A stretch of DNA of 64,000 nucleotides, taken from the NCBI GenBank assembly GCA_000146465.1, contig CP001949.1; one strand, given 5' to 3'. Made by a program: the position numbers and the translations under genes. Of the stretch, positions 2,777 through 63,385 are shown piece by piece (position 1 is the first letter of the stretch; the number at the start of each line of letters is the position of its first letter). The notes beneath the pieces are model-generated. The model was not told the origin of the DNA. It saw only the letters and a program-made list of their open reading frames with translations, and did not search any database.

Positions 2777-4039
2777 ATGTTTAAACATGATTTTCATGAC
2801 CCATATAAGATGGAGGAGTATTTCCGGATATCCGATAGAACAAGGACTCTAGAGCATCAATATACAGATCTTCTTACCAGAAGACTGAGGTTTGAAACCT
2901 TGCTGGTTGAAGAGGACTACAGCAACCTTCTTGCAGCTCATGAGGAGTTTATTTCGAAGGCAAAGACCTCCGAAGACAACTATAAGGAGCAAATAGATGG
3001 CCTAAAGGCTATGGTCGACCAGCTCAACCATGATATGGCAGAAAGAGAAGACAACATAAGGAGACTTATGGAAGAAAATATTAATTTGGTAAGTATGGTT
3101 CAAAGGCTTGAGGAAAAAAGCAAGGAAGATCAAGGAGTAAGAAAGGGGCTAAACGAGCTAGTAGAAGACAGGTTGTGGGAAGCTCAAGACTTTAAAAAAA
3201 TGGATGAGATGCACAGAATTGTTAAGTCCGTCGAGGACGAGCTACGAAGCAACCTAAGCAAACTTCAGGAAGATTGTATTCGATACAGAGGGGATACAGA
3301 AAGAATGAGCTCTGAAATAGAGAAGCTGAAGCTAAAGAATGCCGAACACATAGAAAAGATGAAGGAGATCAAGGAAAGCAGGTCCGTCCTTGAAGATAAA
3401 ATGAAAAAACTAGAGGAAGAGAATAACAGACTTATGAGGGAGAACATTCATTCTGATGAGCTTCGAAGATTTATAAGTGAGAAAGATGAGATTATATCTG
3501 CATTAAAAGAAAACATGAGGCAGAAGTCAGAGGTAATTGAAATGCAGAAGAAAATGATTGCGAGTTCTCCAAAAGAGAGCAGGGTTGTTTTGAGCAATGA
3601 CGTCTACAATGTGTTTGAAGAGGACCTTAAGGCTGAGGAGAGTGACGGAGAGCTAGAACTAGGAGATGGATATGGCACTAAGGAGCAGCTTTGGAATGAC
3701 ATCTCCTCTCAGCCCAAGCCTGTAGGAAAGAGTGCTAAAAGCTTGGGATCTGGAAGAAAGAAGACGGCGGCCCCTAAAAGAGAAAAGACAAGAAAAGTTC
3801 CTCCAAAACTTACAGCAACCATAGATAGAAGTAATGCCAGAGAAAATGCAGACAATAAGATTTCTGGCAAATTACTAGACATCCAGGAAGCCCCAAAGGC
3901 TTCGGAGCCATCCAAAAAACTATTTACTCCGGGATTTTTGCTTAAGCCTGAAAACTCCTCATACTTTGCAGACTTAACATTCAACAACTCAAGTCCAATT
4001 ATAAAGAAGGACCAGCCTAATCTTCCCAAGAAGAGGTAG
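2777..4039 (+). CDS. Coiled-coil protein with basic C-terminus, function unknown
   Basis: Long uninterrupted ORF rich in heptad E/K/L repeats. No recognisable catalytic motif. Confidence 0.5.
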   Translation: MFKHDFHDPYKMEEYFRISDRTRTLEHQYTDLLTRRLRFETLLVEEDYSNLLAAHEEFISKAKTSEDNYKEQIDGLKAMVDQLNHDMAEREDNIRRLMEENINLVSMVQRLEEKSKEDQGVRKGLNELVEDRLWEAQDFKKMDEMHRIVKSVEDELRSNLSKLQEDCIRYRGDTERMSSEIEKLKLKNAEHIEKMKEIKESRSVLEDKMKKLEEENNRLMRENIHSDELRRFISEKDEIISALKENMRQKSEVIEMQKKMIASSPKESRVVLSNDVYNVFEEDLKAEESDGELELGDGYGTKEQLWNDISSQPKPVGKSAKSLGSGRKKTAAPKREKTRKVPPKLTATIDRSNARENADNKISGKLLDIQEAPKASEPSKKLFTPGFLLKPENSSYFADLTFNNSSPIIKKDQPNLPKKR

Positions 4040-16774: not shown

Positions 16775-16903
16775 AAAAAAGCCGAATCTACATCCGGCAA
16801 CCTCTCAAGTTATACATGTCGTCCTTACGCAGGGGCCATGCTAATCTTCTCTGTGTTGTTCCAAATCAATGGCGGTAGAAAACTACAACCCTTCCCTGCG
16901 AGA
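16775..16903 (-). ncRNA. U6: U6 spliceosomal snRNA
   Basis: The minus strand contains ACAGAGAAGATTAGCATGGCCCCTGCGTAAGGA, identical to the universally conserved U6 ACAGAGA/AGC box and 3' ISL region. A 5' stem-loop lies upstream. The gene ends in a run of at least 8 T (plus-strand A8 at 16773-16780), typical of a Pol III terminator. A TTAATTAATA TATA-like element sits about 30 nt upstream. Ends approximate. Confidence 0.85.
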
Positions 16904-57435: not shown

Positions 57436-57508
57436 AGTGACCTTAGTGTAGTGGTTATCACGTTCGTCTAACACGCGGAAGGTCCCCAGTTCGAGCCTGG
57501 GAGGTCGC
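57436..57508 (+). tRNA. tRNA-Val (anticodon AAC)
   Basis: GTGACCT-TA-GTGTAGTGGTTATCAC-G-TTCGT-CTAACAC-GCGGA-AGGTC-CCCAG-TTCGAGC-CTGGG-AGGTCGC-A. Near-identical to canonical eukaryotic tRNA-Val(AAC). Confidence 0.9.
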
Positions 57509-57557
57509 ATTATTTTTGCATTGGGTTTTGGGCCAAAAGGATTGTCTGAAAAAAGAC

Positions 57558-57641
57558 TCTCCCAAGCTGGAGTCGAACCAGCGGCCATTCGATAACGGCA
57601 TACTTCTACAGTCGAATGCTCTACCACTGAGCTATTGGGAG
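57558..57641 (-). tRNA. tRNA-Tyr (anticodon GTA) with a 12-nt intron
   Basis: Reverse complement: CTCCCAA-TA-GCTC-AGTGGTA-GAGC-A-TTCGA-CTGTAG[AAGTATGCCGTT]A-TCGAA-TGGCC-GCTGG-TTCGACT-CCAGC-TTGGGAG-A. The intron lies after anticodon-loop position 37, at plus coordinates 57594-57605. Confidence 0.85.
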
Positions 57642-57742: not shown

Positions 57743-58117
57743 TCACAGCTCTCGAATGTTCTTCGACTTGAATGGCGATCGAGGAAATGAGGAAAATAAA
57801 AGATCCATCTCGGTTTCATCCTCTTGGGATGCTCTGTTCATTTCTTGTGCCGGAGGCTTTGTCTTCTCTGTGATCTCTCTCAGCGCTGTGTATCTCTTCC
57901 TCTGCTTTACCTTGGTAGGTGTAAACTCCTTGATGTGTGGATTGTAGTTCTCCTTCTCAGGTAGGTTGTCAAACCCTGCACCATCTGGTCTTTCACATCT
58001 CATGTTAGGGATTCCTCCTATTGTCCAATAAGTCCATTTTGGAGGGAAGATTCCAAGACCTTGCAAAATAACAGCATTCAAAGCCCTAAGAAGAGTACAG
58101 AATTTATTGTTACACAT
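57743..58117 (-). CDS. Hypothetical 124-aa ORF, possibly a fourth exon of the upstream membrane-protein gene
   Basis: Starts 8 nt inside the end of the 58110-58301 ORF in the +1 frame. A 28-nt GTAACA..CTTCTTAG segment would join it in frame (see findings). No motif recognised. Confidence 0.4.
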   Translation of the reverse strand: MCNNKFCTLLRALNAVILQGLGIFPPKWTYWTIGGIPNMRCERPDGAGFDNLPEKENYNPHIKEFTPTKVKQRKRYTALREITEKTKPPAQEMNRASQEDETEMDLLFSSFPRSPFKSKNIREL

Positions 58118-59087
58118 CCGGAATGCCCTTGTCCCTCTTTACCTTCAGTACATTCCGCTCTTTCCCTGCGGGGTAAAACAACTCCTTTAGCCCAGATCCG
58201 AAGTACCTGTAGTCCAAGACCGAGTAATACAGAAAAATCAGGTTTATAACTGCCTCGAAGTTATTCCTTATGATGAAGAGCCTAAAATTAAAAATGCTCA
58301 CTTACCTCCTCAGATGCCAATCCAGAGCGTCACTGTTCCTATGTCTCGAAACCTGGGATGTACAGTACGAAAGATTCAAGGCTGTTGCCATGATTAGAGA
58401 CATCCTTTGGCCCTCATTTTCTTCATTAGGCCTCATGAACATTAAGAAAAAGGTGATAACCTCGAGAATATGGTCAAGCACCATCAAGAAAGCCTCTAAA
58501 GAGTTTACAGTGTAGTATTTGATCCCCTCGATCTGAAGATATATCCCCTGGATGGCTGCTAGGATCATTAGAAACTTCGATGCATCGTACCGGGCCCTTG
58601 CTTTGTATGCAGCTTAAAATTATATGTGTCACTTACCTTTCAGCTTGCTGCTAACACCCCCCTGCTTAAAATAGTACCATTCAAACATGTCTCCATATTC
58701 CTTGCATACGAAGTACATCCTAATAAACTCTCCAACGCATAGTCCTAAATACAAAAGGGAAAAAGCCACAACTCCCAGGTTGTGATTGGTAAACTTGAAA
58801 ACGCTTTCCACAATCACAGATGCCTCCAGAGAAGCTATGAGAATGATAACCCAGTATGCCTTGCACTGCTCAAGGTTTTTTCTCGACATTGCATTTTCAA
58901 GATAGATAAACATGTAGACGTTTGTAACACATATGGACAGACACATCGATCGGATTATGACCATTTGCTTACCGATAATGTTTTTCCGGTAAAATCCAAT
59001 TCCGATGACTAATATCCTCAAAAGCAAGTACATAAACGAAACCTTCCTCCCTTTGTTCAACAGTTCGTCCTTCCCCAACAAGTCCAT
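58110..59087 (-). CDS. Spliced gene for a polytopic membrane protein: three exons (about 59087-58637, 58612-58306, 58281-58110) separated by two 24-nt introns
   Basis: Track ORFs 58629-59087, 58302-58568 and 58110-58301 are all in the same frame. Each separating stop (TGA at 58629-31, TAA at 58302-04) lies inside a minus-strand GGTAAGTGA motif. Introns GTAAGTGACACATATAATTTTAAG (58636-58613) and GTAAGTGAGCATTTTTAATTTTAG (58305-58282) are both 24 nt, so removing them fuses a continuous ORF of about 317 aa with 6-7 TM helices. Confidence 0.65.
58282..58305 (-). other. Spliceosomal intron 2 (24 nt, GTAAGT...TTAATTTTAG) carrying the in-frame TAA
   Basis: Minus strand GGAG|GTAAGTGAGCATTTTTAATTTTAG|GCTCTT. 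Canonical 5' splice site, TTAAT branch-like element, TAG 3' splice site. Confidence 0.7.
58613..58636 (-). other. Spliceosomal intron 1 (24 nt, GTAAGT...TTTTAAG) carrying the in-frame TGA
   Basis: Minus strand AAAG|GTAAGTGACACATATAATTTTAAG|CTGCAT. The 5' splice site matches the consensus. Length and A/T-rich 3' end fit the constrained Encephalitozoon-type intron. Confidence 0.6.
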
Positions 59088-59266
59088 TCAATGGGTCTGT
59101 GCCATTTCAAAAAAAATATCATTTATCACAGGTTTAGATCCACTGATCTACTTAAATTATAAAATTTCAGAAGGCAATCTATCTCTAATTAGTTGGAATT
59201 CCCTGCTAATGCAATTCTGATAAATTAAATCATGCCTGTGTTATTGATCCGATCCGAGATAGCATC

Positions 59267-59692
59267 CTAGAACCCGTTCCTTGTGAAGACAATTTGGCCA
59301 TATGCTTTCTTCTGCACAGGTATAATGTCCCCTCTTGAGCTCATCAAAAGAATGGAATAGAATGTCCTTGCTCTTGTCCTTCTGCTTGTGCCAGCATACT
59401 CGTCGAAGTCTCCATTGCTCAGCAGGATGCTTGCCATGTCTTCGCTGGAAGTGCTGTTTGAAAAGTCCTCTCTACTCGAATGCCTAGACCAATTACGTGC
59501 TTTTTCTACAGAGTCAAAGGAAGACATCCCGGCATACAACATCCCAGTCCCCTGGATTGGAGGTCTTATCTTCTTAACTTCCCTGGTGATAAAGGCTTCT
59601 TCTTCAAACACCCGGGTTTCAGCCCTCTCTTCATGCTTGGATGTTCTTGAAGCTCCTGCTTTATTGATATTCAGTACTGTTGTGCTGTCCAC
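59267..59692 (-). CDS. Hypothetical Ser/Arg-rich ORF, same frame as 59699-60151
   Basis: Track start is a GTG. The first ATG is about 50 codons in. Low complexity. Coding status uncertain. Confidence 0.25.
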   Translation of the reverse strand: MDSTTVLNINKAGASRTSKHEERAETRVFEEEAFITREVKKIRPPIQGTGMLYAGMSSFDSVEKARNWSRHSSREDFSNSTSSEDMASILLSNGDFDEYAGTSRRTRARTFYSILLMSSRGDIIPVQKKAYGQIVFTRNGF

Positions 59693-59698
59693 TACATT

Positions 59699-60151
59699 CT
59701 AAAGACGCTTTCTGGATATATGTTCCGGCCCGTCCACAACTCCAAATGTTTCGCTGTAGCTAAACATTATACTATCCATACAATCGACCCCATCCAGTTC
59801 GGAGCTACAGACACTTGCCACATATCCTGTTTCAATCGAAAGCATGTTCTTCTTTTTTCTTTCCACCGTCCTTCTCCTCTTTTTTCTTCTATCTAGTATC
59901 CCAGCTAGCGATCTAATTTCAAGCAGCTGAATCCTAACTTTGGCTTTATAGATTCTTATCAGCATTTGAAGAAATACCGAGGCTCCTCTTAACGCATACA
60001 CCGGAAAGATGTCCACCACAGCCTTCACAACCCCTGGAATCCAGATCTTTTCCACAGCCTTTCTTCCAATTCGGACTTTCCTCCCCCTCTTCCCAAGTAT
60101 TCGGAGAAAGGTCAATGCTTCTTGATTCCTAAGGAGATTTTGGAAAGCCAT
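59699..60151 (-). CDS. Hypothetical basic protein (150 aa)
   Basis: ORF with a KR-rich centre. Followed by a single in-frame TAG, after which the frame stays open into 59267-59692. Confidence 0.4.
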   Translation of the reverse strand: MAFQNLLRNQEALTFLRILGKRGRKVRIGRKAVEKIWIPGVVKAVVDIFPVYALRGASVFLQMLIRIYKAKVRIQLLEIRSLAGILDRRKKRRRTVERKKKNMLSIETGYVASVCSSELDGVDCMDSIMFSYSETFGVVDGPEHISRKRL

Positions 60152-61984: not shown

Positions 61985-62242
61985 ATGAAGCTAAGATGCG
62001 GCAAGATCTCAACAGGAAACACTGCAATGATGTGCGATAAATGCTCGGGAAAATGCTATGCATGCGGCCTGGACACCAGAGAGTCCGTGGAAAAGGTCTA
62101 CATTTGCACCCCGTGCTTCCATTCCACGTACAAAGACAGATGCATCGTTTGCAAGCTTAAGGACCCGAGAAACAATGCATACTATTGCAGGGAATGCAAG
62201 CTCCAGAAAAACCACGACAGATGCCCTGTCCTCGCCCAATAA
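61985..62242 (+). CDS. PHF5A/Rds3 (SF3b complex) splicing factor
   Basis: Cys spacing CGK..MMCDKCSGKCYAC..ICTPCF....RCIVCK.....AYYCRECKLQ....RCP matches PHF5A (CRK..LCEKCDGKCVIC..ICDECN....RCVICG.....AYYCKECTIQ....GCP). Confidence 0.75.
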   Translation: MKLRCGKISTGNTAMMCDKCSGKCYACGLDTRESVEKVYICTPCFHSTYKDRCIVCKLKDPRNNAYYCRECKLQKNHDRCPVLAQ

Positions 62243-62276: not shown

Positions 62277-62786
62277 TCATCCCCCACCACTATTTGTTGG
62301 CCACTTGTTGGGACTGTTGTTTGAAACATTCTTCACATGAGGAAATAGTTGCTCCACGTCAATCTCGTGCCCACTAGAGAAGTATTTCTCAAGAGCCCTG
62401 TGGTCCTGCATCTTCACCTTGAAGTTTATTGCCGGGTCTTTCGCAAAGTCCGGAACAACAAAGTCTGGGTCCAAGATGGCATCATTTTCGTCTACTTGCG
62501 GTATCTTTGTCTTTGGCCTGTAAATATGCTGTGGGACCCTTCCTGTCGATCTGAGGAGTTGATAATCAATGGCTTGTTTGTAGAGATTCCCTCCGTTGAA
62601 CCTCTTGCCTGTCTCTGTCTCTTTTCCTCTCACTCCAAGAGAATCCAAATCTGCTTGGTGCAGAGGCATCATCTCAGGCTTGCTTATCTCCTTCTCTAGT
62701 AAGCTTTCCTGCCCTTTCTTGCCATACTCAGATTCATTTGCCTTCTCCATACATCTTTTCTTCAGCTGTTGCAAGGCTGCATTCAA
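62277..62786 (-). CDS. Hypothetical protein (169 aa)
   Basis: Starts with an ATG that overlaps the stop of 62783-63385 (ATGA). Different frame. Confidence 0.35.
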   Translation of the reverse strand: MNAALQQLKKRCMEKANESEYGKKGQESLLEKEISKPEMMPLHQADLDSLGVRGKETETGKRFNGGNLYKQAIDYQLLRSTGRVPQHIYRPKTKIPQVDENDAILDPDFVVPDFAKDPAINFKVKMQDHRALEKYFSSGHEIDVEQLFPHVKNVSNNSPNKWPTNSGGG

Positions 62787-63385
62787 TTTGGAATTTGCAT
62801 TAAGGTTCCTGATGCCCTTTGCTGCAGTTCAAGTAGTCTCCTTCCAATCCCATTTTCCAATTCTGCATCATTGCATTGTGCTTCCCCCATCTCTCTTTTC
62901 TTCAATAAGCTGGGAAAATCCCCGATTACAGAAGGCTTCTTGAGTCTTGTTCCCTTGTAGATCTCTCTAGAATCCATGTCTATTATCCGAGGACTTTCTC
63001 TCATGGAAATCTCCTTGTAGCCACCCTTGCATCCTTGGCTTACTTTCTTACAAGAAACCGAAGGATGTCCATTCATTCCATTCCTTTCACTCTCCTCAGA
63101 GGTCCTTTTGCCCAGGCCTCCATCCTTGCTCTTTATGACTGGAATGTGCCCTGGAATCAGGCTTTCCTGATCAAATGCACTTCCATCAAAGTCTCCATCA
63201 TACAAAAATTCCTCATTCTCCTTGTCCCTCTCATAACCATCTCTTCCCTTTCCCCCATTCGATATATTCTTCAAATCCTTCATCTCGTATCCACTCTCCA
63301 CATTCATTTTCTCACACATCACACGGTCCTTCACACCTGCAATTGCATTTTTCCATTCCTCAAGAAATTCCTTCAGAAACTCCAT
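62783..63385 (-). CDS. Hypothetical acidic/Gly-rich protein (200 aa)
   Basis: ORF only. No motif recognised. Confidence 0.35.
   Translation of the reverse strand: MEFLKEFLEEWKNAIAGVKDRVMCEKMNVESGYEMKDLKNISNGGKGRDGYERDKENEEFLYDGDFDGSAFDQESLIPGHIPVIKSKDGGLGKRTSEESERNGMNGHPSVSCKKVSQGCKGGYKEISMRESPRIIDMDSREIYKGTRLKKPSVIGDFPSLLKKREMGEAQCNDAELENGIGRRLLELQQRASGTLMQIPN

Follow-up and report, generated by a model that had tools for sequence, protein, structure and literature searches.

Organization of the Locus

The DNA that was analyzed, hereafter the window, is a stretch of 64,000 nucleotides from chromosome VIII of Encephalitozoon intestinalis ATCC 50506 (NC_014422), to which it corresponds at an offset of 32000. 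This placement is supported by four coordinate coincidences with Table S2 of MicroAnnot 2024 (PMC10815200), and the HSF gene that neighbors the gene described below is 100% identical to the HSF of E. intestinalis. A preliminary description, made from the letters of the window, had reported three open reading frames in a common frame on the minus strand, and these were found again in the list of open reading frames (59087..58629, 58568..58302, and 58301..58110). The three were taken to be a single gene, and the excision of two 24-nt segments with GT-AG ends does produce one uninterrupted open reading frame across 59087..58110, a locus of 978 nt. The intron coordinates that had been given, 58636..58613 and 58305..58282 (24 nt each), could be read directly from the sequence, as could the context common to intron 1 and intron 2, GGTAAGTGA. 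The features of the gene are as follows:

59093..59095, minus strand: putative CCC-like transcription signal just 5' of the start codon (ACCCATTGA ATG)
58637..59087, minus strand: exon 1, 451 nt, with the ATG at 59087; codons 1-150 and the first base of codon 151
58613..58636, minus strand: intron 1, 24 nt, phase 1, GTAAGTGACACATATAATTTTAAG; in-frame TGA, TAA, and TAA if retained
58306..58612, minus strand: exon 2, 307 nt
58282..58305, minus strand: intron 2, 24 nt, phase 2, GTAAGTGAGCATTTTTAATTTTAG; the in-frame TAA is that of the splice site itself (G/TAAGT)
58110..58281, minus strand: exon 3, 172 nt including the TAA stop at 58112..58110, with the conserved motif FIIRN...DYRYFGSGLKE

The 930 nt that are left after the excision encode a protein of 309 amino acids with no internal stop, which replaces the earlier estimate of ~317 aa. 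Only two interrupting stops (TGA and TAA) had been mentioned; four were counted in frame, three of them in intron 1 and one in intron 2. The predicted junction of exons 1 and 2, after removal of 58636..58613, is GCAAGCTGAAAG joined to CTGCATACAAAG (shorter form, GCAGCAAGCTGAAAG to CTGCATACAAAGCAAG), and that of exons 2 and 3, after removal of 58305..58282, is GCATCTGAGGAG joined to GCTCTTCATCAT (shorter form, TTGGCATCTGAGGAG to GCTCTTCATCATAAGG). The residues at the two junctions are predicted to be KLK-A-AYK and LRR-LFI, respectively. The region from 58000 to 59200 is identical in three further E. intestinalis assemblies (the T2T assembly CP075165.1 and two isolate assemblies), and in a Logan contig that ends within the gene, the exon 1 open reading frame is closed by the same stop. 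The stops are thus not sequencing errors.

The upstream neighbor is a Rad21/Rec8-like gene (59267..60151, minus strand) with a single in-frame TAG at 59701..59699. The orthologues from E. cuniculi (301 aa), E. hellem (299 aa), and Ordospora pajunii (304 aa) are intact, with Arg, Lys, or Ile at the site of the TAG. Both halves of the gene can still be aligned, including the C-terminal block SRRxRARxFY...PVQKxAYGxIV, and the TAG was found in all four of the other E. intestinalis assemblies or contigs examined. The pair of open reading frames is placed with the "falsely predicted genes" in MicroAnnot Table S2 (PMC10815200), and in one isolate record the two are joined into a protein of 289 aa. 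The gene may be a pseudogene, a split gene, or an instance of stop read-through.

Several other features of this part of the window were recorded. Relative to the T2T assembly, one A is missing near 62829, which splits a 369-aa gene into the open reading frames 62783..63385 and 62277..62786; MicroAnnot Table S2 (PMC10815200) has this gene, as 94277-95385, in its category "FS, SE & pseudogene". Three nucleotides (GGA) are also missing near 62204, inside the span of the PHF5 gene by coordinate conversion. Each of the two differences probably reflects an error in, or a variant of, the 2010 assembly. Genes for tRNA-Val(AAC) (57437..57509, plus strand) and tRNA-Leu(TAG) (57558..57641, minus strand) lie between a cNMP-binding gene and an 86-aa gene, and several spurious listed open reading frames overlap them. 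The tRNA-Val was called by ARAGORN and is not among the Rfam matches at the gathering threshold. An open reading frame of 124 aa (57743..58117, minus strand) overlaps the 3' end of the intron-containing gene by 8 nt. It is probably over-extended; from the orthologous loci and the curated table, the start is at 58003, which gives the 86-aa gene (NC_014422 89743-90003).

Conservation of the Gene and Its Introns

A homology search with the spliced product and a comparison with related microsporidia had been proposed in the preliminary description, and both bear out the single gene. The search matched two protein clusters, represented by ECU08_0950 from E. cuniculi GB-M1 (CAD26401.2 / NP_001402252.1, 311 aa) and by the orthologue from E. 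hellem (KMI_01g01590 / EHEL_080930, 302 aa). These are full-length orthologues: the former is 59% identical end to end with a coverage of 98%, the latter is 58% identical, and the coverage of the orthologues is 97-98%. The alignment crosses both junctions uninterrupted. Each orthologue is deposited as a single spliced protein with introns at the same codons, and the gene span exceeds the coding sequence by 49 nt for ECU08_0950 and by 47 nt for the E. hellem gene. When segments were excised from both orthologous loci on the basis of the splice motifs, the deposited proteins were reproduced exactly. A literature search for ECU08_0950, Eint_080920 (the E. intestinalis locus tag), and EHEL_080930 found no mention of them in the main texts of the papers available.

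Five taxa were compared: E. intestinalis, E. cuniculi, E. hellem, and two further relatives, L008 and L010. L008 is a Logan contig and is nearest to E. hellem; L010 is richer in GC and more distant, with a protein identity of ~40-47%. Both introns were found at identical positions, in phases 1 and 2, in all five. Exon 1 is 451 nt in every taxon. Exon 2 is 304 nt in L010, whereas the other four loci, which are of the Encephalitozoon type, all have 307 nt. For introns 1 and 2, respectively, the lengths are 25 and 24 nt in E. cuniculi, 23 and 24 nt in both E. hellem and L010, and 24 and 25 nt in L008. Since several of these lengths are not multiples of three, unspliced read-through cannot yield the conserved protein; only removal of the introns does so. 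The order PHF5 - HSF - Rad21/Rec8-like - intron-containing gene - 86-aa gene - cNMP-binding gene is shared. By full-length similarity, synteny, and exon-intron structure, the gene belongs to the ECU08_0950 orthologous group. The CCC just upstream of the ATG is also found in the other four taxa. Signals of this class have been described (PMC2803860), and the CCC at 59093..59095 would be the transcription signal of the intron-containing gene.

Purifying selection acts on each of the three exons: pN is ~0.1-0.3 against a pS of ~0.55-0.94, which is close to saturation, and dN/dS is ~0.1. Expression of the E. cuniculi orthologue has been measured at an FPKM of 82/189/151. These results bear on whether the locus could be a decaying pseudogene, in which the frame has been broken by nonsense mutations. 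There are four in-frame stops within 978 nt, and the adjacent Rad21/Rec8-like gene carries a lone in-frame TAG of its own. However, every stop at the locus is confined to the two 24-nt segments, whose splice signals are perfect, and the same two segments occur in five taxa and in a paralogue. Together with the low dN/dS and the expression of the orthologue, this leaves decay of the gene hardly credible.

Splice Signals

Both introns start with GTAAGTG and end with AG. Fourteen introns are available from this gene family; all 14 start with GTAAGT, and in all 14 a TAAY motif, the putative branch point, precedes the 3' G by 6-7 nt. Apart from GTAAGT(G) and TAAY(6-7 nt)G, the intron sequences are not conserved.

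The pattern GTAAGT..TAAYTT..AG has two matches on the two strands of the 64-kb window, both of them inside the intron-containing gene. The number of matches expected by chance was determined to be ~0.16 from 300 first-order Markov simulations, and a looser pattern gave a similar result. The two-intron pattern is well above chance. Thirteen GTAAGT sites in the window were inspected, and a TAAY..AG tail was found at none of the other eleven. A 40-nt match to GTAAGT...TTTTAG at 3774..3813 (minus strand) has no TAAY branch-like motif and is absent from the curated intron list. It falls inside the span of a listed coding sequence (NC_014422 34810-36039; window 2810-4039) and is probably a chance match.

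Components of the splicing machinery had also been reported from the window. The U6 snRNA gene was located at 16775..16890 on the minus strand (Rfam RF00026, 66.5 bits), and PHF5A was confirmed as the PHF5 gene; a crude motif (regex) search of the window for SmB and YJU2 gave nothing.

Annotation of the Gene in Public Records

The GenBank entry for strain ATCC 50506, Eint_080920, is the 152-aa open reading frame of exon 1, to which the T2T record adds an 88-aa piece, GPK93_08g13910. One isolate record contains a 249-aa model with a non-canonical gap of 36 nt. For exon 3, no gene is called in the T2T record of E. intestinalis; of three other assemblies or contigs of this species, two lack a call as well. 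The exact 309-aa product was not found in a collection of 15 billion proteins.

Read literally, the ATCC 50506 and T2T records describe independent small genes of 152 aa (Eint_080920) and 88 aa (GPK93_08g13910), with exon 3 as non-coding DNA, and an ATG is indeed present at 58568. However, the conservation of the protein spans both junctions and the region 5' of this internal ATG, and because the upstream residues AYKxRARYDAxKFL are conserved, the ATG at 58568 is not a start codon. The GTG start of the exon 3 open reading frame is part of the GTAAGTG splice site, and exon 3 is under purifying selection. In the orthologues, spacers of 23 and 25 nt shift the reading frames, yet their excision restores a single open reading frame. 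The annotation itself has a simple explanation: the GenBank pipelines begin with Prodigal calls and introns are added by hand, and thus the missed introns are an annotation artefact. It is extremely improbable that the locus consists of independent genes.

We conclude that 59087..58110 (minus strand) is very probably the E. intestinalis orthologue of ECU08_0950, which encodes a multi-pass membrane protein of 309 aa and contains two 24-nt miniature spliceosomal introns. The reading as one gene with two introns is supported by the anatomy of the sequence, the conservation of intron position and phase, the constraint on the exons, and the identity with the deposited spliced orthologues.

This gene structure is not new. 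The "intron prediction" category in Table S2 of MicroAnnot (PMC10815200) lists a coding sequence at NC_014422 90110-91087, which is equal to 58110-59087 plus 32000 and is the same 978-nt span; three other entries fit the same offset. MicroAnnot takes its reference annotation from Peyretaillade et al. 2012 (Nat Commun 3:1137), as cited in PMC10815200. The two-intron model was therefore known before, both in the curated re-annotation of E. intestinalis and in the records of the E. cuniculi and E. hellem orthologues, and the present finding is a correct re-discovery of a known structure that is still wrong in the public records of E. intestinalis. Its practical value is one of annotation hygiene, since the GenBank/RefSeq records, that of the T2T assembly included, still split the gene into fragments of 152 and 88 aa. 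The correct 309-aa model will be of use in cataloguing introns, tabulating orthologues, and searching proteomics data for E. intestinalis, which is a human pathogen.

Paralogues and the Age of the Introns

A paralogue from E. hellem, KMI_01g01690 (P0045), is located ~9 kb from the orthologue (L012, 1501..2441) and has introns of 25 and 23 nt. The paralogue from L010 (6445..5505, minus strand) has introns of 23 and 24 nt. In both, the introns are at homologous codon positions and in the same phases as in the orthologues, and the paralogues share ~21-27% identity. The occurrence of the same sites and phases in both paralogues implies that the two introns predate the duplication within the lineage. 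The deposited model of KMI_01g01690 seems to take the acceptor of intron 2 from a position 2 nt too far downstream (25 vs 23 nt), which would shift the frame of the C-terminus, with the loss of the conserved DYxxFGxGLK motif.

In the MicroAnnot list, the entry that follows, NC_014422 99912-100876, is where the E. intestinalis paralogue is expected; this would be 67912..68876 in window coordinates and is outside the window. In L010, both paralogues flank the HSF and cNMP-binding genes, and the Rad21/Rec8-like gene is absent there. In Ordospora pajunii (L009, 5882..7236), there is no copy between the Rad21/Rec8-like gene and an 84-aa gene, and tblastn found none in the 10.9-kb locus. A distant homologue (P0044, in L011) is an uninterrupted open reading frame without introns, and the homologues P0042 and P0046 are likewise intronless. 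A membrane protein family that is restricted to the microsporidia, and that has two miniature introns in both paralogues, is a clean case for intron survival under extreme genome reduction.

Properties of the Encoded Protein

The profile search and the structure prediction were run from the exon-wise sequence rows. The protein had at first been credited with 6-7 transmembrane helices; two AlphaFold models instead agree on eight long helices, with a pLDDT of 63 for the first model and 74 for the second, which was made with a slightly deeper alignment. Intron 1 interrupts the conserved loop motif F-E-W-x-Y-F-K-x-G-A...K/A-Y-K-x-R, and intron 2 lies where the last helix begins, with the D-Y-R-x-F-G-x-G-L motif following 23 residues later.

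Pfam contained no match above threshold for the spliced protein, the E. cuniculi orthologue, or four homologues. In a sequence profile search of the PDB, the best match had an E value of 2.1, and Foldseek with the pLDDT 74 model gave no match in the PDB at E <= 0.001 (TM ~0.2). The label "Protein RFT1 homolog" is attached in UniRef to a 152-aa fragment from E. hellem (WEL39249.1). The Rft-1 family of Pfam was not matched by the spliced protein at E <= 10, or by the E. cuniculi orthologue and the four homologues at E <= 1, and the label is an unsupported automatic one. RFT1 is far longer than 309 aa.

Predicted Splicing and Consequences of Intron Retention

The pre-mRNA is predicted to contain two introns of the Encephalitozoon type, each with GUAAGU at the 5' splice site and, 6-7 nt before the 3' AG, a branch-like UAAY motif. 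The reduced Encephalitozoon spliceosome would remove both, and splicing would join the two parts of codon 151 (G/CT) and of codon 253 (AG/G). If intron 1 were kept, translation would terminate after 152 codons, the first stop being codon 153; if only intron 2 were kept, it would terminate after 253 codons, the first stop being codon 254. The sequence facts are consistent with ordinary splicing by this spliceosome.

In the available text of Grisdale et al. 2013 (PMC3629993), all of the annotated introns of E. cuniculi are confirmed as spliced by RNA-seq, and the short introns are mostly spliced at under 20-50%, from which it follows that unspliced transcripts may be in the majority. If E. cuniculi is a guide, introns as short as those found here are probably spliced inefficiently, and a sizeable share of the transcripts may be unproductive.

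It might be asked whether retention is put to use, in which case the transcripts would remain mostly unspliced and give a truncated 152-aa product of ~4 helices or be degraded, and the level of splicing would tune the dose of the full-length protein. This proposal is compatible with a single gene with two introns. For E. cuniculi, 30 of 37 introns are spliced in <50% of transcripts, and one gene with two introns had the largest time-dependent change in splicing, of 30% (PMC3629993, available text). Both introns have also been kept across species and in the paralogue despite the loss of most introns in the lineage. However, Grisdale et al. judged most of the changes too small to serve as evidence of regulation (PMC3629993, available text), a functional truncated product has no support here, and the conservation of intron position is expected from simple inheritance as well. 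The use of retention is accordingly considered unlikely. It is similarly doubtful, though conceivable, that the introns persist because inefficient splicing around premature stops sets the dose of the membrane protein or yields a truncated four-helix product during the infection cycle.

The preliminary description regarded the immediate termination of an unspliced transcript as a built-in check on splicing. This is a general property, however, in that all introns of E. cuniculi carry a stop or a frameshift according to the available text of Grisdale et al. (PMC3629993). A phase-2 intron that starts with GTAAGT necessarily has an in-frame TAA. The immediate TGA in intron 1 is found only in E. 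intestinalis, the letters at this point being TGC in E. cuniculi and TGG TAG in E. hellem. An in-frame stop is present in all eight of the family introns that have a length of 3n. The in-frame stops thus follow from the intron consensus and the phase, and there is no dedicated checking device. The supposed rarity of introns outside ribosomal-protein genes is likewise overstated: many E. cuniculi introns are in non-ribosomal genes, and two introns occur together in a few genes (PMC3629993, available text).

Comparison with Known Systems

The closest comparison is with ECU08_0950 and EHEL_080930, in which the intron positions and phases, the splice motifs, and the exon lengths of 451 and 307 nt are as in E. 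intestinalis. The differences are in the length of intron 1 (25 and 23 nt, respectively, against 24 nt in E. intestinalis) and in the lengths of the C-terminal tails. With an intron 1 of 25 or 23 nt, retention in the orthologues causes a frameshift and not a clean in-frame insertion with stops. The orthologous proteins are deposited in spliced form, whereas that of E. intestinalis is not. The curated re-annotation of E. intestinalis gives the outer boundaries of the coding sequence without intron coordinates, and its correction is absent from the GenBank records.

The miniature spliceosomal introns of Encephalitozoon have reportedly been the subject of a study by Lee et al. in 2010. Those of E. 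cuniculi are 22-76 nt in length and have GT-AG ends and strict motifs, according to the available text of Grisdale et al. 2013 (PMC3629993). The introns described here are 24 nt, and those of the orthologues and paralogues 23-25 nt, which is within this range. The E. intestinalis pair also has in common with the miniature introns described in that text the GT-AG ends, the strict GTAAGT and branch motifs, the stop or frameshift upon retention, and a non-ribosomal host gene (PMC3629993). By the GT-AG/GTAAGT signals, the branch-like motif, the length, and the stop or frameshift, the two introns very probably belong to the short spliceosomal introns of the Encephalitozoon type, and there is no difference in kind.

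The tiny introns of Paramecium are said to be under translational surveillance, with stop-less introns of length 3n being avoided, in work attributed to Jaillon et al. (Nature, 2008). The introns of the present family are like them in being very short and in having stops in all eight of the 3n members. They differ in that the 14 introns of the family are too few for a test of depletion, and in that the phase-2 stop is imposed by the splice site. The machinery for nonsense-mediated decay (NMD) is, moreover, reduced in Encephalitozoon, according to the available text of Grisdale et al. (PMC3629993).
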